Assembly (NCBI GenBank): GCA_964569695.1
Contig: CAZMUA010000005.1
Span: forward strand, 18,904-82,903
Direction of reading: 5' to 3'
DNA from: an uncultured Woeseiaceae bacterium
GTDB lineage: Bacteria; Acidobacteriota; Vicinamibacteria; Vicinamibacterales; UBA823
Length of the DNA: 64,000 bases
A program made the translations under genes and the position numbers. The notes under the pieces were generated by a model. It ran no database searches. It was not told the origin of the DNA and saw only the letters and a list, made by a program, of their open reading frames with translations. Positions 1,468 through 54,667 of this stretch are shown piece after piece; position 1 is the first letter of the stretch; each line of letters opens with the position of its first letter.

Positions 1468-2736
1468 ATGTCAAAAGTACTCTACTTTGATTGTTTTTCG
1501 GGCGCATCAGGCGACATGATTCTTGGATCTTTGCTTGATGCCGGTCTTCCAATCGAGGAGTTGCGCGGTGCTCTCGGAAGTTTGGCCCTCGACGGCATGT
1601 CCATTGAGGCAGAGTCCGTGGATCGTGCTGGCGTGGCAGCGATCAAGTTTCGTTTACGTGAAAATGGTCAAGTTGTGGATGGCTCGGACCCTACTCCTAA
1701 AAAACATCATCATGACCACGATCACCACTCGGACAAGTCACATCATCATCATTCTCATCGCAGTATCGATGAAATATTAGAACTTGTAGGGCGGTCAAAC
1801 CTTTCTGAAACTGCAAAGACAAGCGTAGGGCATTTATTTGGTCGTCTGGCAACGGCTGAAGCTGCAATTCATCAGATGCCAGTTAATGAAGTGCATCTCC
1901 ATGAAGTAGGGGCGCTAGATTCGATCATTGACATTGTGGGTGCAACGTTTGGGTTTGAATGGTTCGCTCCTGATGAGGTCGTTGTTTCACCGCTCAATGT
2001 TGGTTCAGGGACGGTGGAATGTGCCCACGGTATCTATCCGGTTCCAGCCCCGGCGACAGCGCGGCTTTTGGAAGGCTCACCTATATATGCGAGTGGTGAG
2101 GCCGGTGAATTGGTCACACCGACCGGAGCCCTGCTCATGACTGAATGGGCGACTTCATACGGTCCGCTTCCGCCCATGACAATCAGTCGTGTGGGATATG
2201 GCGCCGGAGAACGTAATAGGGCGGATTCACCAAATGTACTCCGCCTCCTTGTTGGCGAGTCGGCAGATATTGATGTAGGTGAACGTGTTGTCGTTTTGGA
2301 ATGTGAAATTGACGACATGAATCCTCAGATCTTTGGACTATTAATGTCACGCCTGCACGAAGCTGGGGCACTCGATGTGTTTTATGTGCCTGTGCAGATG
2401 AAAAAAGATAGACCAGGAACGTTGGTGACTGTTATTTCACCGCTAGGATTACGCGAGACGTTGAGCGAAATTCTGTTCCGGGAGAGCACCACACTAGGTA
2501 TTCGCTATCATGAGACTCGACGTGAGCGGCTCGAACGAACGTGGATGACGGTTGAGACTTCTCTTGGTGCCGTTCGTATCAAACTTGCCCGTCGCGGCAA
2601 CCAGGTTCTAAATGCCGCACCAGAATTCGATGACTGCTTGCAACTAGCAAAACAGCACGACGTACCTGTCAAGCATGTTCAGGCTCTAGCTCAGAAGGCC
2701 TATCTTGATATGAGTGACAAAGCAAGAGGAAAGTAA
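1468..2736 (+). CDS. larC: nickel insertion protein LarC (DUF111 family)
   Basis: 422 aa. The N-terminal 'LYFDCFSGASGDM' signature and an internal His-rich stretch (KKHHHDHDHHSDKSHHHHSH, 1705-1758) are typical of LarC. No larA, larB or larE is nearby. Confidence 0.85.
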   Translation: MSKVLYFDCFSGASGDMILGSLLDAGLPIEELRGALGSLALDGMSIEAESVDRAGVAAIKFRLRENGQVVDGSDPTPKKHHHDHDHHSDKSHHHHSHRSIDEILELVGRSNLSETAKTSVGHLFGRLATAEAAIHQMPVNEVHLHEVGALDSIIDIVGATFGFEWFAPDEVVVSPLNVGSGTVECAHGIYPVPAPATARLLEGSPIYASGEAGELVTPTGALLMTEWATSYGPLPPMTISRVGYGAGERNRADSPNVLRLLVGESADIDVGERVVVLECEIDDMNPQIFGLLMSRLHEAGALDVFYVPVQMKKDRPGTLVTVISPLGLRETLSEILFRESTTLGIRYHETRRERLERTWMTVETSLGAVRIKLARRGNQVLNAAPEFDDCLQLAKQHDVPVKHVQALAQKAYLDMSDKARGK

Positions 2737-39963: not shown

Positions 39964-41555
39964 CGCAATGGGTGTCGACCCTGCTGAATCCATGGATGGA
40001 TCTCTGTCGGCAAGCTTCTATGAATAAGCCCTCATGCTTTCTAAGCCTTGCGATGCTAGTAATGTCGTGTGCCGGTGAAGTGTCAATTGATGACCTAGCA
40101 CCGTCAAAAGACTTAAATAAACCTAACATTCTCTGGATTATTGCTGAAGATTTAGGTCCGGAGTTGAGCGCGTATGGTCATCCTGAAGTCCAGACTCCAA
40201 ATCTGGATCGACTTGCGGCGGATGGCGTTCGGTATACCCATGCGTTCACCACATCTCCGGTGTGTTCGTCGAGTCGATCAGCTTTCATGACAGGTATGTA
40301 TCAGACGACGCTTGGCGCACACAATCACCGTTCTCATAGAGAAGACAACTACCCGCTTCCGGACGGAGTGCGTCTCATTACCGATTGGTTACGAGATGCT
40401 GATTACTTCACAGGTAATATCGTTGATTTGGCTGACAGTGATGAAGAATTTCATTACCGGGAAGTAATGGAGGAAGGTTTTGCCAAATTTTCTGGGACTG
40501 GCAAAACTGACTGGAATTTTCATTATGAAGGTGAACCCTTCGATACCAATCGCTGGAGTGATCTAGTACGTAACGAGCCTTTTTATGCGCAAGTGAACTT
40601 TCCAGAGACGCATCGTGGTTCGGAGTGGGACAATGCTCACACGCAAATCGTGCAACCCGCGAATCCAGGTGCCGTAAAGATGCCTCCGTACTATCCAGAT
40701 CACCCGGAAGCCCGTGCAGATTGGGCTCAGTATCTGAACGCGATCATGTCTTTAGATCGAAAAGTCGGTTTTGTACTGAATAGGCTTGAAGAGGATGGGT
40801 TAGCTCATCGAACTGTTGTCATATTCATGAGTGACCATGGACGAGCGATGGTGAGGGGGAAACAGTGGCCCTATGATAGTGGACTGCATGTTCCACTCAT
40901 TTTGCGGTGGCCCAATGAAATTGCAGCGCCCGAAGGATTCGCGGCTGGAACCGTAGACGATCGTCTCATTGCTTCAATTGATGTATCAGCGACCACGCTT
41001 GCAATTGCTGGTGTCACTCTTCCTACTAAAATGCAAGGGCAAGTCTTTCTAGGCGAAGACTCGCCAGCTCGAGCGTATGTTTTTGGTGGTCGCGATCGAG
41101 GAGATGAAACAATTGATCGAATTCGTACAGTTCGTGATGATCGATATCGCTACATTCGGAACTATTATCCGGAAAGAGGACTGCTACAACTCAATCGATA
41201 TAAAGAATTTACTTATCCCATGATTCCATTATTGCGGGAATTACACGAAGCAGGTCAGTTAACGCCTACACAGGCTGCCTTGTTGGCGCCGAGTCGACCT
41301 GAGGAAGAACTGTACCGCCTTGATATCGACCCGTTCGAAATAGACAATGTGGTCGACGATCCGGATCATGCCGCGTCACTCAAACGTCTCCGCCTTGCTT
41401 TGGATGAATGGATTATTAATTCGGATGATCAGGGTCGAACGCCTGAGTCACCCGAAATCTACGAGTACTGGGAACGCGAGATGAGCGAAATCTACGATGC
41501 TCGAATCAATCAGATGTTAAAAGAACGTCAGAATCGTAAGGTCACAAGAGACTAG
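39960..41555 (+). CDS. sulfatase-family enzyme with a non-canonical CSSSR active-site motif, secreted or lipoprotein
   Basis: 531 aa with 'IIAEDLGPEL' and 'SPVCSSSRSAFMTG' (40263-40277). ATG at 39960 overlaps the previous stop (ATGA). An alternative Met at 40020 gives 'MNKPSCFLSLAMLVMSC' (lipobox-like). Confidence 0.82.
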   Translation: MTQWVSTLLNPWMDLCRQASMNKPSCFLSLAMLVMSCAGEVSIDDLAPSKDLNKPNILWIIAEDLGPELSAYGHPEVQTPNLDRLAADGVRYTHAFTTSPVCSSSRSAFMTGMYQTTLGAHNHRSHREDNYPLPDGVRLITDWLRDADYFTGNIVDLADSDEEFHYREVMEEGFAKFSGTGKTDWNFHYEGEPFDTNRWSDLVRNEPFYAQVNFPETHRGSEWDNAHTQIVQPANPGAVKMPPYYPDHPEARADWAQYLNAIMSLDRKVGFVLNRLEEDGLAHRTVVIFMSDHGRAMVRGKQWPYDSGLHVPLILRWPNEIAAPEGFAAGTVDDRLIASIDVSATTLAIAGVTLPTKMQGQVFLGEDSPARAYVFGGRDRGDETIDRIRTVRDDRYRYIRNYYPERGLLQLNRYKEFTYPMIPLLRELHEAGQLTPTQAALLAPSRPEEELYRLDIDPFEIDNVVDDPDHAASLKRLRLALDEWIINSDDQGRTPESPEIYEYWEREMSEIYDARINQMLKERQNRKVTRD

Positions 41556-41588
41556 CCAGTCAGCCGAAGAGAAATATTGGTTTTCTGT

Positions 41589-44048
41589 ATGACTAAAAAG
41601 AGTTCCAAAAAAACTACGCGGCGTAAATTTCTCCAGCATGTTACGGGAGGCGTCATTGTACCAGCCGTAGTTAAAGGAACTTCGCCCCTTGATGGGTCGA
41701 GTTCTTTTATTGACCGATCAAGCCAGAATGACCTGACAGCGATTATCAATCTGGAAACAGGTGTGACCCGTCCATGGCTTGGTTCGGCGTTGTGGGCAAA
41801 TCGTTTGCAGGACTGGAGGCTGAACGATGGTCGTATCGAATGTCTCGCTGGTGGCCAAGAAGATTTGGGTCGAACGGTTGGGATATTAACCCGTGAGATC
41901 GTGAGCGGTGAGGGGGCAGTGCATCTCCGCGTGCTGACCGGCACGCTTGAAATGTCAGGAAAAGGCGGGTTTAGTGGTTTCCTTATTGGTGTGGGTGCTG
42001 GAAATCTCGACTACCGGTCCTCTGCTTTGGCTCAAAAGGCATCTGGAATGGACGGGGGTTTCTGGTGTGGGTACGAAAGTGATGGTCAAATTCGATTTCG
42101 TGAACATACAGACGAGCGGGCGCCGCTTGCTTATAGGGAACTGTCCTCTGAGCAGACGAGTGAAGGGTTTAGTCCAAAGCGTAATTTGAATGAGGTAGTC
42201 GAATTACGCTTAGACATTAAGTTGCAATCAGACGGACGCTTCACGGTCACTCTGAATGCACTCGACGCTAAAACAGGGGAGCACTTGGCTGGAGGCATTC
42301 GTCGTGATGTTGCGGATCGGGATGTGACTGGGGCGGTAGCACTTGTATCCTCCGCGACACCGCAGGGTGTCGGTTGTGCTCGTCATTGGTTTCAAGATCT
42401 TGAGAGTGGCGGTTCCAAGATTGCCAATCATGCATCCAGGTCTTTGGGACCTATTCTGGGGACTCTGTATTCCCTTAACCAAAACGTCCTGAAGGTGTCT
42501 GTCCAGTTGATGCCTCTTAGTGATGATGCACCACGGACAGTTTTGTTTCAGTATCGAACCCCAGGAGGGCTGTGGCAAGAAGGAACTAATGCAGAGTGGG
42601 GGATGGGATACTCAGCAGTGTTTCGGATGGAAGAATGGGATTCTTCTCAATCTTGGGAATATCGCGTGCGATACAAAAACTTATCGGGAGTCCAACACGA
42701 TTATCTCGGAGTCGTTCAACAAGACCCGAAAGACTATGACGAGTTCGCTATAGCCCATCTAAGTTGTGTTATGCCAGTCGCCCGTTCGTTTGAGGGCGGG
42801 ATAGGTGAGCCTGAGCTACCGATAGCGGAATTATTAGGGCGTTACACTAATAAGAACATCCATTTTCCGCACGCTGATTTAGTTAGGCACCTCTCGGTTC
42901 ATGATCCGAAACTGCTTGTGTTTGCGGGCGACCAGTTGTACGAGCATCGTCCGACTCGGCAGGATGAGAGTAAGACACAAGGGTTGGATTATCTATATAA
43001 ATGGTTTCTTTGGTACTGGTCATTTGGCGACTTAACCCGTCGAGTGCCGACAATTATTCAGACTGACGATCATGACGTCTATCAGGGAAACCTTTGGGGC
43101 AATGGTGGTCGCGCAGCACCACCCAAGATTGTGGATCGTGACGGTGTAGCAACTAGAGTGCCTGATCAAAATCGTGGAGGGTATAGGTTCAGCCCTGGGT
43201 TCGTTAACCTTGTCCAGCAGACCCAGTGTGGACACAATCCCGACCCCTACGACCCGACACCGATTGAACAAGGCATTGGCGTGTACTATGCAACATTCAT
43301 CTATGGCGGTATCAGTTTTGCTCTTCTAGAGGACCGTAAGTTTAAGACTGCACCAATCCAAGGTGCAGACCTTGATGTCCATGAAGCAGAATTGTTGGGC
43401 GGTCGGCAGGAAGCATTTTTGCAGAGTTGGGCTCATGACAAAGGCGATGTTGATGGTCGTATCTGCTTAACTCAAACGGTATTTGCATGTGTGCAGACCA
43501 GTCCGGAAGGTCGCCCGTTAGTGGATTGGGATTCGAATGGTCACCCAAAACTTCAGCGTGATCGCGCAATCGCGTTATTGCGGGACGCGGGAGCGCTTGT
43601 ACTGGCAGGTGACCAGCATTTAGCTTCCATTGTGCGGCATGGTATTGATTCTCATACTGACGGTGTCGTGCAGTACACGGGTCCTGCGACACTATCGTTT
43701 TGGCAGCGCTGGTTTGAGCCACGCACGGGCTTACCTAATGCTCAGGGTAGGCATACAGGTGATTTTGTGGATGCTTTTGGGAATAGACTTCGAGTGCATG
43801 CTGTAGCAAATCCAAAGATTTCCTTCGACTATTATCGTCGGTTTAAGCCGGGTCGTAGCCAGGCGTTGGGAGACACTCAGCTAAAGAGTGAAGGCTACGG
43901 AATTATACGAGTCCAAAAATTACAAAAGAAATATGTCATTGAATGTTGGCCACGAGCTGTTGACCCCCGTGACCGGGATGCGGCTCAATTTGCAGGCTGG
44001 CCGTTTCATTTGCGGTTTGACGAGTGTGATGGACGGGCGCTTGATTAG
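41589..44048 (+). CDS. Tat-exported PhoD-like metallophosphatase with a large N-terminal domain of unknown function
   Basis: It has the Tat motif 'TRRKFLQH'. The C-terminal half carries 'FAGDQLYEH', 'QTDDHDVYQGNLWG' and 'LAGDQHLASIVRHG' (calcineurin/PhoD-like). The longest ORF starts at 41577. Confidence 0.75.
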   Translation: MTKKSSKKTTRRKFLQHVTGGVIVPAVVKGTSPLDGSSSFIDRSSQNDLTAIINLETGVTRPWLGSALWANRLQDWRLNDGRIECLAGGQEDLGRTVGILTREIVSGEGAVHLRVLTGTLEMSGKGGFSGFLIGVGAGNLDYRSSALAQKASGMDGGFWCGYESDGQIRFREHTDERAPLAYRELSSEQTSEGFSPKRNLNEVVELRLDIKLQSDGRFTVTLNALDAKTGEHLAGGIRRDVADRDVTGAVALVSSATPQGVGCARHWFQDLESGGSKIANHASRSLGPILGTLYSLNQNVLKVSVQLMPLSDDAPRTVLFQYRTPGGLWQEGTNAEWGMGYSAVFRMEEWDSSQSWEYRVRYKNLSGVQHDYLGVVQQDPKDYDEFAIAHLSCVMPVARSFEGGIGEPELPIAELLGRYTNKNIHFPHADLVRHLSVHDPKLLVFAGDQLYEHRPTRQDESKTQGLDYLYKWFLWYWSFGDLTRRVPTIIQTDDHDVYQGNLWGNGGRAAPPKIVDRDGVATRVPDQNRGGYRFSPGFVNLVQQTQCGHNPDPYDPTPIEQGIGVYYATFIYGGISFALLEDRKFKTAPIQGADLDVHEAELLGGRQEAFLQSWAHDKGDVDGRICLTQTVFACVQTSPEGRPLVDWDSNGHPKLQRDRAIALLRDAGALVLAGDQHLASIVRHGIDSHTDGVVQYTGPATLSFWQRWFEPRTGLPNAQGRHTGDFVDAFGNRLRVHAVANPKISFDYYRRFKPGRSQALGDTQLKSEGYGIIRVQKLQKKYVIECWPRAVDPRDRDAAQFAGWPFHLRFDECDGRALD

Positions 44049-44183: not shown

Positions 44184-44315
44184 ATGATAAACGTGAGACT
44201 GTTCAGTTGGTTCAAGACCGCTGTAGATGTCAACTTCACGATATCTGTAAGCACGGCGACGATCGTCACTATTTTCGGCACGACCACGATGCCGTGGGCG
44301 TGCAAGATGATGTAG
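44184..44315 (+). CDS. Thr/Ile-rich leader peptide (thrL-like), 43 aa
   Basis: Translated by hand because it is under 60 aa and absent from the ORF track: MINVRLFSWFKTAVDVNFTISVSTATIVTIFGTTTMPWACKMM. It has an SD-like AGGAAG at 44169-44174. Its stop codon lies inside the antiterminator arm. Confidence 0.6.
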   Translation: MINVRLFSWFKTAVDVNFTISVSTATIVTIFGTTTMPWACKMM

Positions 44316-44345
44316 CCTGAACCAAGTAAGAGCAAGTAATCAAAG

Positions 44346-44377
44346 GCCATCATCCGAGCGGATGATGGCTTTTTTTT
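44346..44377 (+). terminator. Rho-independent terminator (attenuator) upstream of hom
   Basis: A perfect 10-bp stem GCCATCATCC (44346-44355) / GGATGATGGC (44360-44369) with loop GAGC, followed by eight T (44370-44377). Confidence 0.85.
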
Positions 44378-44406
44378 ATTCAGGGAAGAGGCGCGAAGAA
44401 TCTTTC

Positions 44407-45705
44407 ATGTCTAGTGATAAAGGCCAACCGAAAGTTCGAAGAGTAGGGATAGCTGGGTTTGGCACCGTGGGCCAGTCGGTAGCACGGTTGCTGTGTTCAG
44501 AGAGATATCCGGATCTGCTGTTAACGCACATCTACAATAGAAATATAGAGGCGAAGAAAGTCGATTGGGTGCCAAGACACGTCGTATGGACGGATCGGAT
44601 TGAAGATGTGCTAGATACTGATGTGGATATATTTGTTGAATTGATCGGTGGACTATCACCTGCAAAAGAGTGGATTGAAACCTCCATTAAGGGTGGACAG
44701 TCAGTCGTAACGGCGAACAAGCAAGTAATTGCTAAACACGGTGCTGAGCTTTGCACATTGGTTCGTCAAAGTGGCACGGCGCTAGGTTTCGAAGCGGCCG
44801 TTGGTGGCGGCATTCCAATGGTGCGAGGTATTCAGCAGGGGTTAGGGTCGGATCATTTAGTCGAACTTCTCGGAGTTTTAAACGGTACCTGCAACTTCAT
44901 CTTTGACCGTATGGAGTGCGAAGCGGTCACCATGGAGGAGGCAGTACAGGAGGCGCAGGCGCTCGGTTACGCGGAGGCGGATCCTTCAGATGACCTAGAC
45001 GGATTGGATGCACAGGCGAAGATCTCCATCTTGTCAGCGGTAGGACTTCGTCGTCGATTGACGCCGAGCGATATTCCAACTCGTACTATTAAGAGTGTTG
45101 GCCAAATGGAGTTTCGGCAGGCCGACAAATCGAACTATGTGATTCGACAGGTCTCACGTGTTGCTGTGGATAATTCTCAAGATGATCAAGTTCAAGCCCT
45201 AGTAACTCCTGCGTTAGTTCCAAAATCTTCACGCCTTGGCCAGGTGCATGGTGCTGAAAACATAATCGTAACGCGCGGTAAATGGGGAGGAGAATCAGCG
45301 TTTGTTGGGCTTGGGGCCGGCGGCGAACCTACGGCTATTGCTGTTGTTGGTGACCTCTTGAGTATTGCGGAAGATACCGGGATTAGCGCAGCGATGCGCT
45401 TTCCGGCATCAGAATCGACGTCTCGAATATCCAAAGAATATATTTCACGACATTATCTGCGAATGCCTGCTGTTCTTCCGGATGGGATGAATTCAGTATC
45501 TGATCGACTTAAGAGGAATGGTGTTGAAGTAGAAAAGACTTGGCAAGAATCAGAGCACTCTGGCCAATTGTTTACGCTAATGTTCACCGGCTTGGCATCG
45601 TTCTCGGTCATTCAAGAAATGTGTGGTGAAGTTGAGGGGAAACTCAAGGATGGGGAGCAATGTGTGTGGTTGCCAATCTTGGATGAAAACACGAAAGAGC
45701 ACTGA
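44407..45705 (+). CDS. hom: homoserine dehydrogenase
   Basis: It has 'VGIAGFGTVGQSV' (Rossmann fold), 'VVTANKQ', 'FEAAVGGGIP' and a C-terminal ACT-like domain. The longest-ORF start (44362) lies inside the terminator hairpin, so the Met at 44407 is preferred. Confidence 0.9.
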   Translation: MSSDKGQPKVRRVGIAGFGTVGQSVARLLCSERYPDLLLTHIYNRNIEAKKVDWVPRHVVWTDRIEDVLDTDVDIFVELIGGLSPAKEWIETSIKGGQSVVTANKQVIAKHGAELCTLVRQSGTALGFEAAVGGGIPMVRGIQQGLGSDHLVELLGVLNGTCNFIFDRMECEAVTMEEAVQEAQALGYAEADPSDDLDGLDAQAKISILSAVGLRRRLTPSDIPTRTIKSVGQMEFRQADKSNYVIRQVSRVAVDNSQDDQVQALVTPALVPKSSRLGQVHGAENIIVTRGKWGGESAFVGLGAGGEPTAIAVVGDLLSIAEDTGISAAMRFPASESTSRISKEYISRHYLRMPAVLPDGMNSVSDRLKRNGVEVEKTWQESEHSGQLFTLMFTGLASFSVIQEMCGEVEGKLKDGEQCVWLPILDENTKEH

Positions 45706-45724: not shown

Positions 45725-46954
45725 ATGACATATTTTACTGGGTTGCAGTGTTTTCTATGCGGGACGGCCTTTCCGGCTAAGGCTTTGTTCGTCTGCGATC
45801 AATGCCTCGGGCCACTTGAACCGACATATGACTTTGACGCCGTGCGGGCTGACATGTCGCGTGCTGCCGTTGCATCGCGGCCGCAAAATTTGTGGCGTTA
45901 TCGAGAACTTCTTCCGATTGTAGGAGAACCCAGGACGGGTCTTCAGTCCGGATTTACGCCCTTGGTCCGTGCTGACCGTCTAGCTCGTGAGGTAGGTCTT
46001 CAAGAGCTTTATCTTAAGGATGATTCCGTGAATCATCCAAGCCTGTCCTACAAGGATCGAGTGGTCTCGGTGGCCGCGACTCGAGCCGTCGAACTGGGTT
46101 TTCAGAAATTCGGCTGTGCGTCCACTGGTAATCTAGCCAATAGTGTTTCTGCACACGCTGCACGTCTGGGCTTGGAGTGCTATGTGTTCATTCCAAAGAC
46201 GCTTGAACCTGGAAAGATAATAGGCACCTCGATCACAAATGCACATGTTGTAGCCATAGATGGAACCTACGATGACGTTAATCGACTGTGTACACAAGTC
46301 GCGGACCGTTTTGAAATTGGATTCGCAAATATTAACTTACGCACCTATTATGCGGAAGGTGCTAAAACGCACGCGTTCGAAATCGCGGAACAACTCGGCT
46401 GGACTTTTCCTAAACATGTAGTTGTGCCGGTTGCAGGAGGCACCTTATTACCCAGAGTGGGAAAAGGGTTTCGGGAGTTACGAGACATCGGCTTCGTTAG
46501 CGATTCGATGCCAAAAATTCATGCGGCTCAAGCTGCTGGTTCCGCACCAGTTGTTCGAGCCCTCCATGAAGGGCTCGAATATCCCGAACCAGTCAAGCCA
46601 GAAACCATCGCGAAGTCAATTGCTATTGGAAATCCGGCTGATGGATTTCAAGTCCTTCAAGTGGTGCGTGAAACTGGTGGTTGGGGCGCGATGGTGAGTG
46701 ACAGTCAAATCCTTGCGGCAATGAAATTACTCGCCGAAACTGAGGGTATTTTTACGGAGCCTGCTGGAGGTACTACGTTGGCTGTGACGTTAGCGCTTGT
46801 CGAAGAAGGAAAAATTCCACGTGATGAATCAGTCGTGGTGTCCATTACAGGTAACGGCTATAAAACGACTGATGCGATTAGCGGTCAGTTGAAACCTGTT
46901 GTGCAACTTGGACGCTCTTTGAAAGAGTTTGAGACTTTTCTAGCTGATCGGTAG
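45725..46954 (+). CDS. thrC: threonine synthase (subfamily with an N-terminal zinc ribbon)
   Basis: 409 aa with 'CFLCG...CDQC' and the PLP-Lys context 'PSLSYKDR'. The fold-type II layout and operon context agree. Confidence 0.88.
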   Translation: MTYFTGLQCFLCGTAFPAKALFVCDQCLGPLEPTYDFDAVRADMSRAAVASRPQNLWRYRELLPIVGEPRTGLQSGFTPLVRADRLAREVGLQELYLKDDSVNHPSLSYKDRVVSVAATRAVELGFQKFGCASTGNLANSVSAHAARLGLECYVFIPKTLEPGKIIGTSITNAHVVAIDGTYDDVNRLCTQVADRFEIGFANINLRTYYAEGAKTHAFEIAEQLGWTFPKHVVVPVAGGTLLPRVGKGFRELRDIGFVSDSMPKIHAAQAAGSAPVVRALHEGLEYPEPVKPETIAKSIAIGNPADGFQVLQVVRETGGWGAMVSDSQILAAMKLLAETEGIFTEPAGGTTLAVTLALVEEGKIPRDESVVVSITGNGYKTTDAISGQLKPVVQLGRSLKEFETFLADR

Positions 46955-46986: not shown

Positions 46987-48234
46987 GTGAGGCCGGCAAT
47001 GGATAAGATGCACGAATGGAGTGAGGTCGTCGAAGCCGAAGGGCATTTAATTGATTCTGAGGTATTAACTACCATTTTTGACAAGGTTATCGAGCAGGGC
47101 GCCAAGTTCGAGGTTGAACATTTCGATATTGGTCGGACAAACGAGGATTCGTCCAGACTCTGTCTGAAAGTCACAGCTTCCAGTGAAGCTGCCTTGCAAC
47201 GGTTGTTAGAAGACCTAGTGCCCCTAGGCTGTCATCAAGGTCCAGAGCGTGATGCGAAATTAGAGTTAGCAGCATCGGAGGGTTGTGCACCAGAGGCGTT
47301 CTATTCAACAACGAATCATCGCACGCGAATAAGGCATGGCGGTTCTTGGATTGATGTTAAACATCAGCGCATGGATGCTGTAATTGTAGTGAAGAATGGA
47401 AAGGCAACTTGTCGGAAGCTTCGAGACCTCAAGGTTGGAGAGTTAGTGGTTTGTGGAGCTGATGGGATTCGGGTAAGCCCCGAGTACCGTGAACGCGATC
47501 GGTTAGGCTTTGCGTTCATGACAAATGATATTTCGTCTGAACGGCGTGTTGAAGTTGGCGTGGTCCGTGTTGCTGCCATGATGGATGAAGTCCGGAAAGC
47601 AGGTGGCCGCATTGTTTTCGTAGCCGGTCCATTAATCGTGCACACTGGAGGCGCTCCTTACTTCGCTGAACTTATTAGGCTAGGTTATGTTGATGCATTG
47701 TTGGCCGGTAATGCTCTAGCTGTACACGACATCGAGTTAGCCCTATTTGGAACCTCTTTGGGGGTCGACCTGGAGTCGGGGATGACTGTTGAGCACGGCC
47801 ATCAAAACCATATGCGGGCGATCAATACCATCAATACGGCAGGAGGAATTAGTCAGGCAGTTCAGGCCGATGTCTTAAATGCTGGCGTGATGTACGAGTG
47901 TGTCCAAAAAGGCGTGGAGTACGTACTCGCTGGAAGCATTCGTGACGATGGTCCTCTACGAGACACCGTTATGGATTTGGTTGAGGCGCAAGAGCAGTAT
48001 GCGAAGGTGTTGAAAGACGCGTCGATGGTCGTAATGCTTTCATCGATGCTTCACAGTATCGGTGTCGGTAATATGTTGCCATCATGGGTGAGAGTTGTTT
48101 GTGTGGACATAAATCCTGCTGTGGTGACTAAGCTGGCTGATCGAGGATCGTCGCAAACTGCTGGCATTGTTACTGATGTTGGTCTGTTTCTTGAGCGCTT
48201 GATTCGTCAGGTGCGACCTCGTTCTAAGAATTAG
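46987..48234 (+). CDS. uncharacterised LOR/SDH conserved-region (TIGR00300-like) protein
   Basis: 415 aa. The N-terminal 'VEAEGHLIDSEVLTTIFDKVIEQG' and the overall layout resemble the PF04455/TIGR00300 family as I remember it. No GHMP-kinase, HAD or PGM-like motifs are present. The start could be ATG 46999. Confidence 0.6.
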   Translation: MRPAMDKMHEWSEVVEAEGHLIDSEVLTTIFDKVIEQGAKFEVEHFDIGRTNEDSSRLCLKVTASSEAALQRLLEDLVPLGCHQGPERDAKLELAASEGCAPEAFYSTTNHRTRIRHGGSWIDVKHQRMDAVIVVKNGKATCRKLRDLKVGELVVCGADGIRVSPEYRERDRLGFAFMTNDISSERRVEVGVVRVAAMMDEVRKAGGRIVFVAGPLIVHTGGAPYFAELIRLGYVDALLAGNALAVHDIELALFGTSLGVDLESGMTVEHGHQNHMRAINTINTAGGISQAVQADVLNAGVMYECVQKGVEYVLAGSIRDDGPLRDTVMDLVEAQEQYAKVLKDASMVVMLSSMLHSIGVGNMLPSWVRVVCVDINPAVVTKLADRGSSQTAGIVTDVGLFLERLIRQVRPRSKN

Positions 48235-48250: not shown

Positions 48251-49498
48251 TTGAGTATTACGCAAACAGCAGAAATCGTGGTTAGGAAATATGGCGGTAG
48301 TTCGATCGCTACTCCTGAAAAGGTGATAGCGATTGCCGATCGAATCGCTGCGACTCGAAGTGCTCTGCCGAAGTTGGTCGTTGTGGTGTCAGCGATGGGA
48401 AAGACCACTGACGACTTAGTTGCCTTGGCGCATCAGGTGACACGCCAACCAGAAGGCCGAGAAATGGATTTATTGCTTGCTTCAGGAGAACAGATTTCAG
48501 TTTCACTGCTTGGGCTTGCGTTACAAGACCGGGACGTACCAGCCGTATCTCTTACCGCTACCCAGTGCGGTATTCGGACTGATGAAATGTTTAATGTCGC
48601 GCGAATTCGATCGATCGATACACAACGAATTCTTGATGAACTCCGTGACGATCGAGTAGTAATTATTACGGGATTTCAAGGGGTGACCGATTCGCATGAG
48701 ATTACGACACTCGGTCGAGGAGGTAGCGACGTCACGGGTGCCGCTGTGGCTGCAGCACTCGATGCACAGGTATGCGAAATTTGTACGGATGTTGACGGAG
48801 TCCTTTCTGCTGATCCGTCAGTCGCCTCGAATGCAAGATTATGGTCTGAGCTTAGTTATGAGGAGGCTATTGAAATGGCTTCGAGTGGAGCCAAAGTGCT
48901 CCATCCTCGGGCTGCGGAAATTTGTATGAATTATGGAATTCCAATTCACGTCCGATCGAGTTTTCATAATCGCGAAGGGACTTGGATTCGTTCAAGAGAG
49001 GATGTTATGGAAACGGCTGAAGTCGTTGGCGTCAGCAGTGACAAGAACGTAGCGAAAATGACACTCCTAAATGTCGAGGATCGTCCTGGCATTGCTGCGA
49101 AGGTCTTTGAGGAATTGGCTGTAGAAGGTATCAGTGTTCGACTGATCATCCAAAGTGCAAGTTCTGAGGATCGAGCACGAATTACCTTTATTGTTGACGA
49201 AGAATATGTGGACGCGGCTACTGAGGTGTTTCGCCGCTGGAAAGAAGAAGAATTGGCAACGGACGTGTTGGTTGACAGAGATGTTGCCAAGATCTCGATA
49301 GTGGGTTCGCGACTTGCGTCCACGCCCAATTTAGCGGCAAGAATGTTTGTTGCCTTAGCTCGCGAGAATATCAACATCGATTGTATAAGTTCTTCTGAGA
49401 TGAAAGTCGCATGTGTGATTGCCTCGAAGCATCTCAATAAAGCTGTGCAAGTAGTGCACGATGAATTCTTTGCACTGGAATTGAAGGCCGATGGATAA
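48251..49498 (+). CDS. lysC: aspartate kinase (monofunctional, two ACT domains)
   Basis: 415 aa with 'VVRKYGGSS', 'VVVVSAMGKTTD' and 'LGRGGSD', plus C-terminal tandem ACT domains. TTG start. Confidence 0.92.
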   Translation: MSITQTAEIVVRKYGGSSIATPEKVIAIADRIAATRSALPKLVVVVSAMGKTTDDLVALAHQVTRQPEGREMDLLLASGEQISVSLLGLALQDRDVPAVSLTATQCGIRTDEMFNVARIRSIDTQRILDELRDDRVVIITGFQGVTDSHEITTLGRGGSDVTGAAVAAALDAQVCEICTDVDGVLSADPSVASNARLWSELSYEEAIEMASSGAKVLHPRAAEICMNYGIPIHVRSSFHNREGTWIRSREDVMETAEVVGVSSDKNVAKMTLLNVEDRPGIAAKVFEELAVEGISVRLIIQSASSEDRARITFIVDEEYVDAATEVFRRWKEEELATDVLVDRDVAKISIVGSRLASTPNLAARMFVALARENINIDCISSSEMKVACVIASKHLNKAVQVVHDEFFALELKADG

Positions 49499-50546
49499 CC
49501 GAAAACGGATTCAGGTAGGGATCCTTGGAGCTACTGGGATGGTAGGCCAGCAGCTTATTCAAGAACTGACAGATCATCCGTGGTTCGAATTGACCTGGCT
49601 GGGTGCAAGTGAGCGTTCGGCCGGACGGCAATATACGGATGTGATCGATTGGCGTCTACCAACTTCACTATCTTCCACTCTTGGGAATTTAATAGTTCAG
49701 AGTTCAGAGCCGACGAATGCGCCTCATCTTATGTTTTCGGGTGTGGACGCATCGGCTGCTGGTCAGATTGAGTCCGCGTTTGCGAACGCCGGTCATATGA
49801 TTGTAAGTAATGCCCGTAATCATCGCATGGAAGAGTGCGTGCCACTGTTGATACCAGAAGTGAACCCAGACCACTTAGGGCTTTTAGGCCAGCAGAAAAA
49901 AAGGAAAGGATGGGCCGGCGGTGTTGTTACGAATCCAAACTGCTCGACTATAGTTTTGGCGATGGCCTTGGCGCCATTGCGAGGATTCGGTATTCGTTCA
50001 GTGATTGTTACTACTCTTCAGGCCATATCTGGAGCAGGATATCCTGGACTGGCCTCGTACGACATTGTTGGCAATGTAATACCGATCGTGCCTGGTGAAG
50101 AAGCCAAAATGGAACATGAAACACAGAAAATCCTTGGCACATTTATTAAAGACCGTATTGAATTACATCCGATGACTGTTAGTGCCCACACGACTCGCGT
50201 GCCGGTGATCGATGGTCATACTGTAACGGTGTCAGTTAAATTTGAGAAAGCTCCGACATTGGATGAGCTGCGTGTGGCATTCGAGGGATTTACAGGTAGT
50301 CCGCAAGAGCAAGAATTGCCAAGCGCGCCAAAAAGTCCAATCGTGTATTTAAACGCTGAAGACCGACCCCAGCCTCGACTTGATGCTCAACGTGGAGAAG
50401 GTATGACGGTATCCATAGGTCGCCTAAGAGAATGCAATGTGCTTGATATTAGATTCGTAGCGCTTGGCCACAACACTGTGCGTGGTGCTGCGGGTGCCGC
50501 GGTACTCAATGCCGAATTATTGTACTCGCAAGGCTTGCTAAACTAG
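49491..50546 (+). CDS. asd: aspartate-semialdehyde dehydrogenase
   Basis: 351 aa with 'VGILGATGMVGQ' and the catalytic Cys in 'NPNCSTIVLAMAL'. It overlaps the lysC stop by 8 nt. Confidence 0.92.
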   Translation: MDNRKRIQVGILGATGMVGQQLIQELTDHPWFELTWLGASERSAGRQYTDVIDWRLPTSLSSTLGNLIVQSSEPTNAPHLMFSGVDASAAGQIESAFANAGHMIVSNARNHRMEECVPLLIPEVNPDHLGLLGQQKKRKGWAGGVVTNPNCSTIVLAMALAPLRGFGIRSVIVTTLQAISGAGYPGLASYDIVGNVIPIVPGEEAKMEHETQKILGTFIKDRIELHPMTVSAHTTRVPVIDGHTVTVSVKFEKAPTLDELRVAFEGFTGSPQEQELPSAPKSPIVYLNAEDRPQPRLDAQRGEGMTVSIGRLRECNVLDIRFVALGHNTVRGAAGAAVLNAELLYSQGLLN

Positions 50547-50592: not shown

Positions 50593-51477
50593 TTAGGATT
50601 CTTTCGCCATCAAATAAATCGCAACAGCTGTCATGCACATGGCGATTATCTGGTAGTCGTAAGGTACACGTTGGTAAATCCACAGTGAAAGAATGATCGT
50701 GATGACCGGTGCCAATGCGGTCATTGGGACTACGATTATGGCTTTCCCGTATCGAAGTGCGTAGACGTAACAAAGGGCGCCGACAGAATTTAACACGTGA
50801 ATCATGGCTGCCAGATAAGGTCCGTTTAACCCCCAGTTAATCGTCTGGTTGAAATCGGTCATGCCTAAGGCCACCGGAATCAACAGAACACCGGTGAGCA
50901 TCATATAGAAGAAGATGCTTTCCGCCGCGATTGTGTCGGTTGCGAATTTCATGATGTAGGCTTGGACCCCCCACATGATGAGCACGCTAATCGCAAGAAG
51001 AAACCATTGAAACCCTTGCACGAGGGTGTCGTCAGGCTCTACATACGAAAGAAGCACGATAGCAGGCAGGGCGAAGGTGATGCCTATCCAGTTCTTGAGA
51101 CTTGCGCGTTCGCGAAGGAGCCACACCGAGAAGACGATGGTGACCGCGGGATACAACGAAACGATCGGAAATACGATAAAGGCCGGTCCTGATCGGAGCG
51201 CCTCAAAAAGCATCAATTGACCACCGGCTCCCGTGAATCCAATAAGACTTCCAAGTAACACTGCCCGTGGGCTGGTTGCAAGGGGAAGTGGGTCTAGCCG
51301 TCGCGCAGCTATCGCGCAGGGAATCATGGTTAAAGCCCAAACTGAATAGCCAAGAGTCGCGGGGAATCCTTGTTGCTCAGGAATTTCAATTAAGGCACCC
51401 CAAATACCCCAAGTGCCAGTTGTGAGGATTGCGTATGTTAACCAGTGACGGGACCAAGAAGATGACGTGTGGCGCAT
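50593..51477 (-). CDS. DMT-superfamily (EamA-like) transporter
   Basis: 294 aa with about 10 TM segments in two repeated halves. Substrate unknown. Confidence 0.7.
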   Translation of the reverse strand: MRHTSSSWSRHWLTYAILTTGTWGIWGALIEIPEQQGFPATLGYSVWALTMIPCAIAARRLDPLPLATSPRAVLLGSLIGFTGAGGQLMLFEALRSGPAFIVFPIVSLYPAVTIVFSVWLLRERASLKNWIGITFALPAIVLLSYVEPDDTLVQGFQWFLLAISVLIMWGVQAYIMKFATDTIAAESIFFYMMLTGVLLIPVALGMTDFNQTINWGLNGPYLAAMIHVLNSVGALCYVYALRYGKAIIVVPMTALAPVITIILSLWIYQRVPYDYQIIAMCMTAVAIYLMAKES

Positions 51478-51574: not shown

Positions 51575-52771
51575 ATGACCGATCTACCGAGAGAACTATC
51601 GACACAAGCTTCGTTATTTTCAGATCTCCTGAGGGTATCTGAGGGTGAACAGCGTAATCGCGGATATTTTTATACGCTGCGCGAGATTTGCCAACAGCCA
51701 GAGTGCTGGCTTCACACAGCGCATGCGATGGCGACTCATACGGCTCAACTGTCAGAGTGGCTGGATGCGTGTGACAAGAGTAGTGGTTTACTGTTAACCG
51801 GTTCTGGCAGTTCTTACTACATCGGGGCGAGTCTGGCGCCGACCTTGCAAGCAAGTCTGGATATTCCTGTGAGGGCCGCCCCGAGTGGTTGGCTCTTACT
51901 CAACCTTAGTGAAGTTATCACACGGCATGCTGTTCCTGGCGTCGTATCGTTCGGTCGATCGGGGAATAGCCCAGAAAGCACAGCAGTTCTTGATCTCGTG
52001 CTGCAAGAACGTCCGGAGTGTCGACATTTAATAGTGACATGTAATTCTGAGGGAAAGCTGGCCACTCAATATCCTAATCAGAAACAAATTGTGCTCGATG
52101 AAAGAGTCCACGACAAAAGTTTGGTCATGACGAATAGCTTTACAAATATGTGGCTAGCGGGCCGTTTTCTTGGGTACCTTCGAAACGCAGATCTCTATCA
52201 CACCCTAATGACTCACATCGCAACTGCTGGACGTCGACTCCTAACCGCCGGTTCAGATCGACTTTTTACAATTGCAACGGGAGCGTATAAATCGGTGTTG
52301 TTTTTGGGGAGCGGCGCTCGATTTGGGGCGGCGCAAGAGGCGAGTCTAAAGATGCTTGAAATGTCATCTGGTCGTATTGTGACCAGAGCCGACACCTACC
52401 TAGGTGTTCGACACGGACCGTTGTCCTTTGTGCAATCAGACACGTTAATCGTGTGTTTTATTTCTTCGGATGAAAGGTTACGTGCTTACGAACTCGACCT
52501 CGTCGGAGAATTAGTTGCGAAGGGTCTGGGAAGTTCTCTGGTGTTAGTTGGAGTAAAAATACCAAAGGAAATATCAAAAGGGGACACAGTCACCGTTTGT
52601 TATGAACGTGCAGAGACCTTGACGGATAATGAGCTAAGTATTCTCGACGTTGTTGTCGGTCAACTGCTCAGCTTCTTTCGATGTCTACATGAAGGGCTCA
52701 AGCCTGACAGGCCTTCACCTGATAATGTGATTACTCGAGTTGTGCGTCCTTTTATAATTCATTCAAAGTAA
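51575..52771 (+). CDS. agaS: SIS-domain sugar-phosphate isomerase/deaminase, AgaS-like
   Basis: 398 aa with 'LLLTGSGSSYYIG', 'VSFGRSGNSPES', 'VTCN', 'RHGPLS' and C-terminal 'KPDRPSPDNVITRVVRPFIIH'. These parallel E. coli AgaS as I remember it. Confidence 0.75.
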   Translation: MTDLPRELSTQASLFSDLLRVSEGEQRNRGYFYTLREICQQPECWLHTAHAMATHTAQLSEWLDACDKSSGLLLTGSGSSYYIGASLAPTLQASLDIPVRAAPSGWLLLNLSEVITRHAVPGVVSFGRSGNSPESTAVLDLVLQERPECRHLIVTCNSEGKLATQYPNQKQIVLDERVHDKSLVMTNSFTNMWLAGRFLGYLRNADLYHTLMTHIATAGRRLLTAGSDRLFTIATGAYKSVLFLGSGARFGAAQEASLKMLEMSSGRIVTRADTYLGVRHGPLSFVQSDTLIVCFISSDERLRAYELDLVGELVAKGLGSSLVLVGVKIPKEISKGDTVTVCYERAETLTDNELSILDVVVGQLLSFFRCLHEGLKPDRPSPDNVITRVVRPFIIHSK

Positions 52772-52778
52772 TGCAGCT

Positions 52779-53702
52779 ATGAGTCGAGTATTGGTTATTG
52801 GCGAGATCAATGTTGATTTGATTTTGAGAGGTTGTGAGAAGTTTCCATCGTATGGAACCGAGGTGTTAGCTAAGGATGGTTTCCTGACGTTGGGAGGCGC
52901 CTCTGCTATTACTGCGGTAGGGCTTGCGCGCCTCGGCACTCCAGTTTCTTTCCTAGGCAAGGTTGGTACTGATTCGAACGGTACTGTTTGCCTTGATACG
53001 ATGGAGTCCGCCGGTGTTGACGTCACACGTGTTGAGCGTAGCAAACACGTGCAGACTGGTATCACCGTATCGATTGTAGGCTCTGATGATAGGGCTCTTG
53101 TTACGTTTCCAGGTTCGATTACTGCATTAAAAGGTGCTGATGTTTCTGATCAATTGTTAGAGCAATTTGGTCATCTACACGTATCGTCGTACTTCCTACA
53201 AGCCAATTTAACTCCTGCGCTTCCAAACATTTTTCAACGAGCTCAGGCCTTGGGTCTCACTGTGTCAGTCGATCCAGGATTCGATCCTTCTGAGGAATGG
53301 GATGCTGGATTGCCTGAAGCGTTAGTTCATGTCGATCTGTTTTTTCCAAATGAGGTGGAACTGTCTGGACTAACCAGCATGCTTACTCCTGGGGAGGCCG
53401 TCAGGGCTCTTGATAATGGTCGGACGATTATCGTCGCCAAGCTCGGTCGTTCTGGTTGTCTGGTGCGAAATGATGGCATGTCAATTGCTGAACCAGCGAT
53501 TGAAGTGTCACCTGTAGATTCGACTGGTGCAGGGGATTCTTTTAATGCGGGATTTCTGAACCCATGGTTGGAGGGTGAGTCCATTAGGGACTGTATGCGG
53601 TCCGGTAATATATGTGGTGGATTGGCGACTAGGCGTTCCGGAGGCACCCCAGGACAACCAAACCGAAGTGAATTGAACGCTGCGTTGGAAGTGAAAAAAT
53701 AG
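52779..53702 (+). CDS. PfkB-family carbohydrate kinase (ribokinase-like)
   Basis: 307 aa with 'VIGEINVDL', 'GGASAITA' and 'DSTGAGDSFNAGF'. Confidence 0.85.
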   Translation: MSRVLVIGEINVDLILRGCEKFPSYGTEVLAKDGFLTLGGASAITAVGLARLGTPVSFLGKVGTDSNGTVCLDTMESAGVDVTRVERSKHVQTGITVSIVGSDDRALVTFPGSITALKGADVSDQLLEQFGHLHVSSYFLQANLTPALPNIFQRAQALGLTVSVDPGFDPSEEWDAGLPEALVHVDLFFPNEVELSGLTSMLTPGEAVRALDNGRTIIVAKLGRSGCLVRNDGMSIAEPAIEVSPVDSTGAGDSFNAGFLNPWLEGESIRDCMRSGNICGGLATRRSGGTPGQPNRSELNAALEVKK

Positions 53703-53737
53703 CGGTTGGAAGTGGCAAATATCAAGATTGTTTCAAA

Positions 53738-54667
53738 ATGATCAGAGTTGCCGGGTTTAACACCTCACTTGATCGGTATCTTGAACTGGATAAGCTACAG
53801 GTCGGCGAAGTGCAGCGGATCAAGCGGGTCGAAGTAAATCCTGGAGGTAAAGGCCTGCATGTAGCAGTCTTGTGCAGTGCTTTTAGCGAGCCGGTCAAGC
53901 TTGTTGGCATTACAGACGCACGCCATCGTGAACTGATTGCTAAATTTCTTCGATCACGAGACGTGACGTTTGAGGCTGTAGAGGTATCCGGTGATGTCAG
54001 AACCTGCTTGGCTATTCGTGAGACAGATGGAGTTATCACAGAACTACTAGAGCCTGGACCGGAGTTGAAAGCCTCAGAATGCGATCAATTAGTATCGGCA
54101 ATGACTTCTGAGATTGATTCTAACGACATTGCAGTGCTGTCTGGTAGTCTTCCGGGAGGATTTGAGCCGGCCGCCTATGTTGAGATTCTAACTAGGTTAA
54201 AAAAAATAGGCATTCGCACCTGTGTTGATGCGAGCGGGGATTTACTGAAAGACCTCTTAAAACATCGCCCCTATCTGGTGAAGTTAAATCGTGATGAGGC
54301 GAGTGCAACACTAGGTCGTAAAATTTGCACGGTTACCGATGCTGTAGAGGCGGCACGGTCTGTGATGCAGCCGGACATTGCATGTGTAGTGATATCACTG
54401 GGAAGTGAAGGCTTGGTCGCTTTACACGAAGAACACATCTGGCATTTTAGTACGCCAAATGAAGAAAGTCGCAACGCCGTGGGAGCAGGAGACTGCTTGC
54501 TTGGTGGAATTGTTGTAGCCTTGGCACGTGATGCCACGATGGAAAATGCGTTAAAACTTGGGACTGCTTGTGGTGCGACAAAAGTTCGATCGTCTGAGAC
54601 AGGGTTCTTACGGATCGAAGAAGTTGAATCTATTCTACCGACGGTCAGCATGCAGACACTTGATTAG
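53738..54667 (+). CDS. hexose-phosphate kinase of the 1-phosphofructokinase/tagatose-6-phosphate kinase subfamily (FruK/LacC/PfkB)
   Basis: 309 aa with 'NPGGKGLHVA', 'KLNRDE' and 'NAVGAGDCLLGG'. Confidence 0.8.
   Translation: MIRVAGFNTSLDRYLELDKLQVGEVQRIKRVEVNPGGKGLHVAVLCSAFSEPVKLVGITDARHRELIAKFLRSRDVTFEAVEVSGDVRTCLAIRETDGVITELLEPGPELKASECDQLVSAMTSEIDSNDIAVLSGSLPGGFEPAAYVEILTRLKKIGIRTCVDASGDLLKDLLKHRPYLVKLNRDEASATLGRKICTVTDAVEAARSVMQPDIACVVISLGSEGLVALHEEHIWHFSTPNEESRNAVGAGDCLLGGIVVALARDATMENALKLGTACGATKVRSSETGFLRIEEVESILPTVSMQTLD

Follow-up and report, generated by a model that had tools for sequence, protein, structure and literature searches.

Among the closest described relatives of the gene considered here are the cyanobacterial enzymes AgrE (Alr4995) and ArgZ (Sll1336), in which a C-terminal ornithine cyclodeaminase module converts ornithine to proline and ammonium (for the AgrE module, see PMC8262935). 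Both are catabolic enzymes that also carry an N-terminal arginine dihydrolase domain, and the structure PDB 6LRG is a ternary complex of AgrE with ornithine and NAD+. Archaeal members of the same family, TIGR00300, include the M. maripaludis protein of PDB 3C2Q and MJ1480. The function of the family and its nickel cofactor were established between 2019 and 2025; according to the study of Desguin et al. (2025), as cited in PMC13524815, the cofactor of such ornithine cyclodeaminases is a nickel-pincer adenine dinucleotide, and NCBIfam now treats TIGR00300 as an equivalog named nickel-pincer-nucleotide-dependent ornithine cyclodeaminase, so that the description of the family as poorly characterised in the first-pass annotation of our locus is outdated. 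The classical NAD+-dependent ornithine cyclodeaminase of Pseudomonas putida and Agrobacterium (mu-crystallin family, PF02423) shares the overall reaction with the TIGR00300 type, and it too works by having a bound cofactor oxidise the alpha-amine transiently, but its fold and family are unrelated to those of the gene studied here. Deoxyhypusine synthase catalyses a different reaction on a different substrate, although it binds a dinucleotide and shuttles a hydride transiently on an amine substrate, which resembles the logic of the TIGR00300 enzymes.

Among described systems, the leader of the surrounding operon is closest to that of the thr operon of E. coli, where thrL encodes a Thr/Ile-rich peptide upstream of Asp-family genes and forms mutually exclusive antiterminator and terminator hairpins. 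The same three features are found in the window, by which we mean the whole 64-kb stretch of DNA that was analysed and to which all positions refer. On its plus strand, which carries every feature described below, a leader-peptide attenuator is followed by hom, thrC, a gene that we call X, lysC and asd. The leader peptide ORF (44184..44315, read from the sequence) encodes 43 aa, MINVRLFSWFKTAVDVNFTISVSTATIVTIFGTTTMPWACKMM, and its codons are enriched in those for Thr (8), Ile (4) and Met (4). Its last two codons and its stop codon lie within an antiterminator arm, GATGATGTAGCC (44306..44317), that is complementary to the 5' arm of an intrinsic terminator, with a duplex energy of -14.7 kcal/mol. 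The terminator itself (44342..44377), found by a terminator scan, has a 14-bp stem with the core GGCCATCATCC / GGATGATGGC followed by T8; the hairpin has a fold energy of -21.7 kcal/mol, and the arm-to-arm duplex one of -23.8. The leader peptide is conserved in the marine relatives L001, L047, L048 and L052, and most other loci examined (L004, L005, L034, L044, L045, L049, L050 and L078-L080) have Thr/Met-rich leaders that end in the same RNA element. The antiterminator element is kept in marine loci, in soil-type loci and in L046, a locus without X, and the terminator core sequence is conserved over the whole clade. Leader, terminator and antiterminator together are, by their make-up and complementarity, a leader-peptide transcription attenuator. 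It has no sequence or Rfam relationship to thrL: neither the gathering threshold nor a cut-off of E <= 1 brought up any Rfam family, Thr_leader (RF00506) included. It further differs from thrL in its enrichment in Met codons and in the position of the leader stop codon inside the antiterminator arm, and the operon differs from that of E. coli in having no thrB and in including lysC, asd and X. At least one Pro is present near the Thr/Met run in every X-carrying leader and none in the single X-less leader. We do not rely on these codons as a sign of proline sensing, given that there is one X-less example, that the marine leaders have a single Pro and that codon usage is biased in GC-rich genomes.

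The composition of the operon is as the first-pass annotation had proposed, with each of the four pathway genes scoring above its curated cut-off and the attenuator conserved. Homoserine dehydrogenase, hom (44407..45705; PF03447 and PF00742), reaches 337 bits against a cut-off of 205 for NF004976; its ORF could begin at 44362, but this position lies inside the 3' arm of the terminator, which makes 44407 the more likely start. Threonine synthase, thrC (45725..46954; PF00291), scores 272 bits against 167 for TIGR00260. Downstream of X, lysC (48251..49498; PF00696 and ACT) encodes a monofunctional aspartate kinase with ACT domains (NF005155, 477 bits against 346), and asd (49491..50546) encodes an aspartate-semialdehyde dehydrogenase of the archaeal/EA type (TIGR00978, 435 bits against 301). 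The operon thus covers four of the five steps from Asp to Thr, and contains no dap or ect genes.

The ORF of X is confirmed at 46987-48234, between thrC and lysC. It reaches back to a GTG at 46987, a start that would give a product of 415 aa and that was previously reported with gaps of 32 nt to thrC and 16 nt to lysC. We reject this start, as an exact look-up of the 415-aa product in public gene calls found no record, whereas the 411-aa product that begins at the ATG at 46999 is recorded in at least 24 metagenome contigs and is the sole version on record. This ATG, which has GAGG 6 nt upstream, is the start used in the public gene calls. Most likely, then, X spans 46999..48234 and encodes 411 aa, which leaves the gap to lysC at 16 nt and widens that between thrC and X to 44 nt.

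Judged by its sequence, X is a clear member of the recently characterised family of ornithine-to-proline enzymes with a nickel-pincer cofactor, and a nickel-pincer nucleotide or dinucleotide is its predicted cofactor. The earlier assignment to PF04455 and TIGR00300 was borne out by the HMM searches: X scores 523 bits against TIGR00300 (curated cut-off 410.8), covering model positions 4-405 of 407, and contains in order the domains PF04455 Saccharop_dh_N (E = 3.5e-27), PF21571 ArgZ-like_C_1st (2.9e-26) and PF21570 ArgZ-like_C_2nd Rossmann (1.9e-97). No Pfam or NCBIfam family beyond the ArgZ/TIGR00300-related set matches X, and PF02423 is likewise absent among its Pfam matches. The suggested link to the C-terminal module of AgrE and ArgZ is also upheld, since X is 50% identical over 407 aa to residues 283-691 of AgrE, the ornithine cyclodeaminase domain; it has no counterpart of the N-terminal arginine dihydrolase domain and stands alone, and its genomic context, unlike the role of AgrE and ArgZ, is biosynthetic. 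By sequence its PDB matches are the AgrE structures 6LRF/6LRG/6LRH (E = 4e-124) as well as 6JUY and 3C2Q, and an AF2 model of X (pLDDT 78.7) finds the same entries with Foldseek (E = 1e-49 to 1e-38). After AgrE, ArgZ and 3C2Q, the next nearest fold is that of deoxyhypusine synthase (E ~1e-6, TM ~0.5), with only 11-17% sequence identity to X. The relatives of TIGR00300 type number more than 8000, many of them in Acidobacteriota, Spirochaetota, Sumerlaeota and Actinomycetota, which corrects the earlier view of the family as mostly archaeal and cyanobacterial.

A set of 30 diverse standalone TIGR00300 members shares 92 near-invariant columns, presumed to be catalytic or cofactor-binding, and we used these to describe conservation within the family. 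X of the window is identical at 90 of these 92, the exceptions being G291D and P321R. It resembles the characterised members, the archaeal ones included, in domains, fold and invariant residues; it is set apart from them by these two replacements, by its acidobacterial origin and by its place in an attenuator-controlled hom-thrC-lysC-asd operon. Across the clade of X copies that lie in the operon, 84 of the 92 columns are unchanged. In 14 of 17 in-operon copies another residue (R in the window) takes the place of the invariant Pro of the DDGPL-P-DT motif, which makes a shift in substrate preference conceivable. The residue at 325 in the in-operon copies is variable (R/V/L/H/P), and at none of the otherwise invariant positions do these copies have a residue fixed for the clade.

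Conservation of the neighbourhood, which had been named as a check, was found: the order hom-thrC-X-lysC-asd is kept in 18 distinct loci, both in marine genomes and in GC-rich relatives of 4.6-7.2 Mb, and in the GC-rich genomes the ends of X overlap or abut the neighbouring operon genes. The span is that of an order, with hom only 43-48% identical between the subclades of the operon. An initial impression of a narrow spread (6 of 39 loci in a sample of genome contigs) was dropped when look-ups anchored on ThrC found the association to be widespread; relatives of ThrC at ~60% identity belong to another system, with clusters of the ThiF-ThrC-ThiS-CysM type, and were set aside. The soil-type operons are adjoined by two conserved, unannotated genes of ~410 aa that have no NCBIfam family and no recorded Pfam match in public gene calls.

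In the tree of X, the in-operon copies group together as a single clade surrounded by standalone acidobacterial copies, and the operon proteins give a matching tree. Since the in-operon copies form one clade, X entered the operon once, and the phylogeny thus indicates a single ancestral insertion of X into the threonine operon in a group of Acidobacteriota. The standalone copies in other Acidobacteriota are 60-69% identical, occupy neighbouring branches of the same tree and are found in unrelated contexts; their neighbours, which look like a rhodanese, HtpX, an ATP-grasp protein and PheS/PheT, have no common theme. One operon, L046, has the order hom-thrC-lysC-asd with a 71-nt spacer in the thrC-lysC slot and the same attenuator, and carries neither X nor thrB. 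We reject it as the ancestral state because it is nested within the X-carrying clade and is basal in only 1 of 60 bootstraps. In the literature searched we found no description of an ornithine cyclodeaminase in a hom-thrC-X-lysC-asd context; the family of X is known, and its genomic setting here is new and conserved.

A gene for the synthesis of the predicted cofactor lies on the same contig, 44 kb upstream of X. It is larC (1468..2736; PF01969, E = 4e-138), the nickel-inserting cyclometallase of nickel-pincer cofactor biosynthesis, with 201 bits against a cut-off of 90 for TIGR00299 LarC1 and 145 against 50 for LarC2. In relatives, larC is found on contigs that also carry X or the ThrC of the operon (contigs matched by a length fingerprint), and it is part of a conserved block of housekeeping genes, an arrangement that points to a core function. 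Its product is likely the cofactor supplier for X. No larB or larE was seen in the window or in the loci of relatives examined. We also asked whether the adjacency of dapF and larC ties the cofactor to lysine synthesis and rejected this, because the adjacency is housekeeping synteny and relatives have radC between the pair.

The explanation that we consider likely is that X is an ornithine cyclodeaminase that was inserted once, is now a co-regulated gene of proline biosynthesis outside the Asp-to-Thr route, and leaves the homoserine kinase step to a thrB encoded elsewhere. The enzyme would most likely convert L-ornithine to L-proline and ammonium. If it works as AgrE does and as the 2025 study describes, a hydride would pass transiently to a nickel-pincer adenine dinucleotide, or an NAD-like cofactor, held tightly by the protein, and LarC would take part in making this cofactor. 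X would be an ordinary orthologue of the standalone copies in other Acidobacteriota. Its insertion between thrC and lysC, into an Asp-family operon under a Thr/Met leader-peptide attenuator, would date to the ancestor shared by a Vicinamibacterales-like clade, and X has presumably been co-transcribed with the operon genes ever since. It is probably a co-regulated biosynthetic gene and not a step from Asp to Thr, which is close to the passenger gene that the first-pass annotation had listed as an option. Several points speak against this explanation. No metabolic connection is known between the conversion of ornithine to proline and the Asp-to-Thr route. Yet the operon has retained X across the breadth of an order, its ends overlapping or abutting those of adjacent genes, and retention of this kind usually points to a functional link. 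In addition, the branch on which X joined the operon is also the one on which thrB departed from it. The replacement of the motif Pro in most in-operon copies counts against it as well, and so does the failure to see larB and larE in the window and in the loci of relatives examined.

A first rival reading is that X kept the hydride-shuttle chemistry of the cyclodeaminases and was recruited to an Asp-family substrate, such as L-lysine (giving L-pipecolate), 2,4-diaminobutyrate or diaminopimelate, in a branch or salvage role. The long retention of X under a Thr/Met attenuator, the loss of the Pro by the DDG motif in most in-operon copies, and the production by the operon of Asp-semialdehyde, the precursor of lysine, DAP and DAB, all fit such a recruitment. 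Nevertheless we hold it to be unlikely: the great majority of the invariant columns are unchanged both in the clade and in the window, the replacement at 325 varies from copy to copy, X scores well over the equivalog cut-off, L046 does without X, and the operon has neither dap nor ect genes. We give equally little credence, if not slightly less, to co-option in the wider sense, in which X acts on any Asp-derived amino acid (lysine, DAB, DAP or a homoserine-related compound) or offsets the thrB that was lost from the operon.

Rather improbable, too, is a purely catabolic X that turns arginine or ornithine into proline and ammonium as in cyanobacteria and owes its site in the operon to a neutral accident, co-regulation bringing it no advantage. 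It is true that AgrE and ArgZ, the bacterial homologues that have been characterised, serve catabolism, that the standalone copies have no consistent neighbours, and that X was lost from the L046 operon. However, the dihydrolase domain of AgrE and ArgZ is missing from X, chance alone would hardly preserve overlapping or abutting ends over 18 loci and two deep subclades, and the position of larC in a core housekeeping block suggests a core function.

The remaining question is that of the homoserine kinase. Probes with E. coli ThrB, an APH-type kinase and the ThrB of L084 found no kinase of GHMP or APH type in the window, so that this part of the earlier claim of an absent kinase stands; the list of kinase types behind that claim lacked the APH-like thrB_alt (TIGR00938), a known fourth type. 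The window is only ~1-2% of a genome, and the absence of a kinase from it therefore says little; the same probes found nothing in the loci of the clade, which likewise cover a small fraction of each genome. Many bacteria carry thrB apart from hom and thrC. In L084, the nearest outgroup, a canonical thrB (TIGR00191, 213 bits against 168) stands between hom and thrC, a different slot from the one between thrC and lysC that X occupies and that is empty in L046. By gene order, the X slot is not a thrB slot. X itself has no match to PF00288 or TIGR00191, no PxGSGLGSSAA motif and no APH motif, and there is no kinase, HAD or PGM structure among the listed Foldseek matches, so that the structure prediction once proposed as a check gave no hint of a kinase. 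Probably thrB is encoded elsewhere in the genome, and the apparent pathway hole would be an unlinked thrB. The lead hypothesis of the first-pass annotation, that X sits at the expected site of the homoserine kinase and replaces it non-orthologously to supply O-phosphohomoserine to ThrC, can draw on the four of five steps in the operon, on the failure to find a kinase in the window and on the loss of an outgroup-type thrB on the branch of X arrival, but it is very improbable for an enzyme of the AgrE/deoxyhypusine-synthase dinucleotide-binding fold that has no kinase family or motif, conserves its catalytic-family residues as the ornithine cyclodeaminases do and has close standalone copies in unrelated contexts, when thrB is so often unlinked, occupied another slot in the outgroup and is missing along with X from L046.

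If X is a co-regulated ornithine cyclodeaminase, the result is mainly a correction, in that a seeming orphan in a pathway hole belongs to a known family. It would extend nickel-pincer-dependent ornithine cyclodeaminases, and a larC of the core genome, to an abundant order of soil and marine bacteria, and it documents in Acidobacteriota an attenuator of the Thr/Met leader-peptide type that is conserved and has no Rfam entry. It also raises the question of why, ever since the operon was rebuilt and shed thrB, an enzyme that forms proline should have stayed beside hom, thrC, lysC and asd. If instead X was co-opted, this would mean a new reaction for a nickel-pincer enzyme, tied to the synthesis of threonine and lysine.

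Five closely spaced plus-strand genes were read between 44.1 and 50.6 kb of the window, and Pfam and NCBIfam profile searches placed all five above the curated cut-offs of their families: hom, homoserine dehydrogenase (ORF 44362-45705, with translation probably starting at 44407); thrC, threonine synthase (45725-46954); gene X, the TIGR00300-family gene (ORF 46987-48234); lysC, aspartate kinase (48251-49498); and asd, Asp-semialdehyde dehydrogenase (49491-50546). These assignments bear out the Asp-to-Thr composition that the first-pass annotation gave to the genes around X; its statement that no homoserine kinase lies within the 64-kb window agrees with homology probes of the GHMP and APH types, which found none there. 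The position given for X is also right, save for a probable 12-nt shift of its start, because the public record has the 411-aa product, from the ATG at 46999 with its GAGG 6 nt before it, in at least 24 marine metagenome contigs (up to 382 kb and identical to the window), and the 415-aa product from the GTG at 46987 was absent from it in an exact-product look-up.

X is probably an enzyme of ornithine-to-proline conversion that is co-regulated with the Asp-family genes. The family proposed earlier for X was recovered in the profile searches, with matches to PF04455, PF21571 and PF21570 and a score of 523 bits against TIGR00300 (cut-off 410.8), an equivalog that NCBIfam names nickel-pincer-nucleotide-dependent ornithine cyclodeaminase. 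A PDB sequence search matched X to the C-terminal module of cyanobacterial AgrE (6LRF, 6LRG and 6LRH, E = 4e-124), and also to ArgZ (6JUY) and the archaeal family structure 3C2Q; AgrE residues 283-691 are 50% identical to X over 407 residues, this module converts ornithine to proline (PMC8262935), and 6LRG is the AgrE ternary complex with ornithine and NAD+. The AlphaFold model of X (pLDDT 78.7) matched AgrE, ArgZ and 3C2Q first and deoxyhypusine synthases next, an AgrE/ArgZ-type fold with no kinase among the structure matches listed, and a motif scan of X found no Walker A, GHMP, APH or PfkB motif.

According to a 2026 paper (PMC13524815), which credits the discovery to Desguin 2025, ornithine cyclodeaminases of this kind bind the nickel-pincer adenine dinucleotide non-covalently. 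Full-length LarC, the nickel-insertion enzyme of the nickel-pincer cofactor, is encoded at 1468-2736 (+) of the window (PF01969 E = 4e-138; TIGR00299 201 bits against 90; LarC2 145 against 50). LarC relatives share contigs with X (382,641, 738,483, 984,852 and 2,700,476 bp) and with the operon ThrC (7,344,591 and 2,911,513 bp), the contigs being equated by identical bp sizes. The gene lies within a conserved housekeeping block of dapF (475-1278), (radC), larC, metG (2746-4272), tatD (4731-5531), ispB (ispB-like, 5657-6652) and ligA (6666-8726); larB and larE are not adjacent to it, and neither was found in the 64-kb window or the fetched loci. Bacterial class A RNase P RNA, at 8785-9193 (+) with 305 bits, is the sole Rfam gathering-level match in the window.

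Upstream of hom, the attenuator that had been assigned to the operon was identified element by element. A leader peptide ORF of 43 codons (44184-44315, +), 8 of them for Thr, 4 for Ile and 4 for Met, precedes a 14-bp terminator hairpin with a T8 tail (44342-44377, +). The leader's final two codons and its stop lie inside the antiterminator element GATGATGTAGCC (44306-44317, +), a sequence complementary to the terminator's 5' arm (duplex -14.7 kcal/mol vs -21.7 for the folded terminator hairpin). Judged from sequence, this is the classic layout of leader-peptide attenuators: a ribosome at the leader stop codon would mask the antiterminator, and one stalled at the Thr/Met codons would leave it free for pairing. 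Antiterminator and terminator are both kept from a 49%-GC marine lineage to large-genome relatives of 63-72% GC, and the leader is Thr- and Met-rich in every relative compared. Among the related loci fetched for comparison (L-numbers), the attenuator is kept, as in the window, in L001, L004, L005, L034, L044-L050, L052 and L078-L080, a Vicinamibacterales-like clade across which its core, GGATGATGTAGCC and GGCCATCATCC...GGATGATGGCC plus the T-run, is nearly invariant. Rfam gave no match for it, and this Thr/Met-codon attenuator may be an undescribed acidobacterial leader.

Among 39 genomic loci encoding X relatives, the order hom-thrC-X-lysC-asd occurs in six, and at the remaining loci the identity of X is at most 69% and its neighbours are unrelated. 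The narrow distribution suggested by these counts was overturned by a second sample anchored on ThrC instead of X, in which the order occurs in L044, L045, L078, L079, L080 and L083 on contigs of 0.28-7.15 Mb, which derive from 4.6-7.2 Mb genomes as judged from equal contig sizes and matching gene products. In these six, the ends of X adjoin or overlap thrC and lysC. The order recurs in marine loci L047-L051, and the total is 18 distinct loci, window included; the neighbourhood of X with hom, thrC and lysC is conserved. In all soil-type loci, a conserved gene pair, each coding for about 410 aa and matching no Pfam or NCBIfam family, directly follows asd on the other strand (about 14.9-17.5 kb, minus strand, in the six ThrC-anchored loci), with a xerC-like integrase gene and metK next. 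The acidobacterial MAG MFD02416.bin.2.80 has two standalone X loci, L023 and L030, and the one in L030 is interrupted by an apparent frameshift, which may reflect either an error of long-read assembly or a pseudogene. ThrC homologues of about 60% identity from soil and sediment metagenomes (L055, L057, L062, L063, L065, L069, L070, L074) lie in the order ThiF/MoeB - ThrC-like - (ThiS-like) - CysM-like, which may represent a sulfur-carrier-dependent amino-acid pathway; an APH-type kinase that lies nearby in L057, L059, L067, L069 and L072 best matches homoserine kinase models without reaching their cut-offs (thrB_alt 204 bits vs 256).

An EamA/DMT-family transporter gene (50593-51477, -), convergent with asd and kept in position in marine relatives, had no NCBIfam match; RhtA, which exports threonine and homoserine in E. 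coli, belongs to this family, and the window's member could be a product exporter. A cluster at 51575-58292 (+), kept in L001 and L002 and not in soil relatives, looks like amino-sugar or glycated-amine catabolism (AgaS-like SIS sugar isomerase/deaminase, two PfkB-family sugar kinases, one of them hexose kinase / 1-PFK-like, asparaginase_2, GFO/IDH/MocA oxidoreductase, aminotransferase), and the genes at 58372-62682 (+), for a glutamine-synthetase-like protein, a peptidase C26 of gamma-glutamyl hydrolase type, an SDR and an aldehyde dehydrogenase, resemble a puu-type gamma-glutamyl polyamine utilisation cluster. In soil relatives an SSF - beta-lactamase-fold - SSF block is divergent from hom, abutting it or with a SIS-family gene between; in the window the block lies at 27846-32198 (-), and about 12 kb separates it from hom (region 27846-44048). 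That segment, apparently inserted in the marine lineage, encodes a PQQ dehydrogenase with a cytochrome c domain, two sulfatases, a PhoD phosphatase, a UbiD-family decarboxylase and, together with ABC transporter genes, an NMT1-like binding protein.

In the X tree, all in-operon copies group in a single clade that lies among the standalone copies of Acidobacteriota, and the split of this clade into marine-type and soil-type subclades is mirrored in the ThrC, LysC and Asd tree; there was thus a single entry of X into the operon, followed by co-divergence with it. The nested relative L046 has hom-thrC-(71 nt)-lysC-asd with the same attenuator and no X; X was most likely lost or relocated there, because the outgroup-rooted ThrC tree places L046 at the base in just 1 of 60 bootstraps. 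The immediate outgroup of the window clade (49 of 50 bootstraps) is L084, acidobacterial as judged from a neighbouring acidobact_VWFA gene, with the operon LysR - small ORF - hom - thrB - thrC - lysC at 7764-12564, in which thrB encodes a canonical GHMP-type ThrB (TIGR00191 213 bits vs 168). This operon lacks X, an adjacent asd and a leader attenuator of this kind, and its layout shows a rebuilding of the operon along the stem leading to the window clade, with the departure of thrB falling on the branch that also gained X, asd and the attenuator.

Of 92 columns near-invariant in 30 diverse standalone members, the in-operon clade keeps 84 and the X of the window 90. The one striking change in in-operon X is the loss of the Pro of the DDGPL-P-DT motif, present in 30/30 standalone members, AgrE included, whose place is taken by R, V, L or H in 14 of the 17 copies within the operon; it is replaced at codon 321 of the 411-aa X in the window (47959-47961, +) and also in L003-L005, L034, L044-L050 and L078-L080, and the second changed position in the window is G291D. 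Persistent operon membership and the lost Pro leave a small probability that X was recruited to an Asp-family role with its cyclodeaminase-type chemistry kept. That X substitutes for homoserine kinase in its expected place, the lead idea of the first-pass annotation, is very improbable even though thrB left the operon on the branch where X arrived and the window holds no kinase for this step, since X is a conserved orthologue, devoid of kinase features, in an enzyme family whose demonstrated chemistry is of another kind, the ancestral thrB slot in L084 is the hom/thrC gap whereas X occupies the thrC/lysC gap, the L046 operon has neither gene, many other genomes have standalone X orthologues, and thrB is commonly not linked to hom and thrC in bacteria. 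The best-supported reading is of X as an ornithine-to-proline enzyme whose expression would be regulated together with that of the Asp-family genes.
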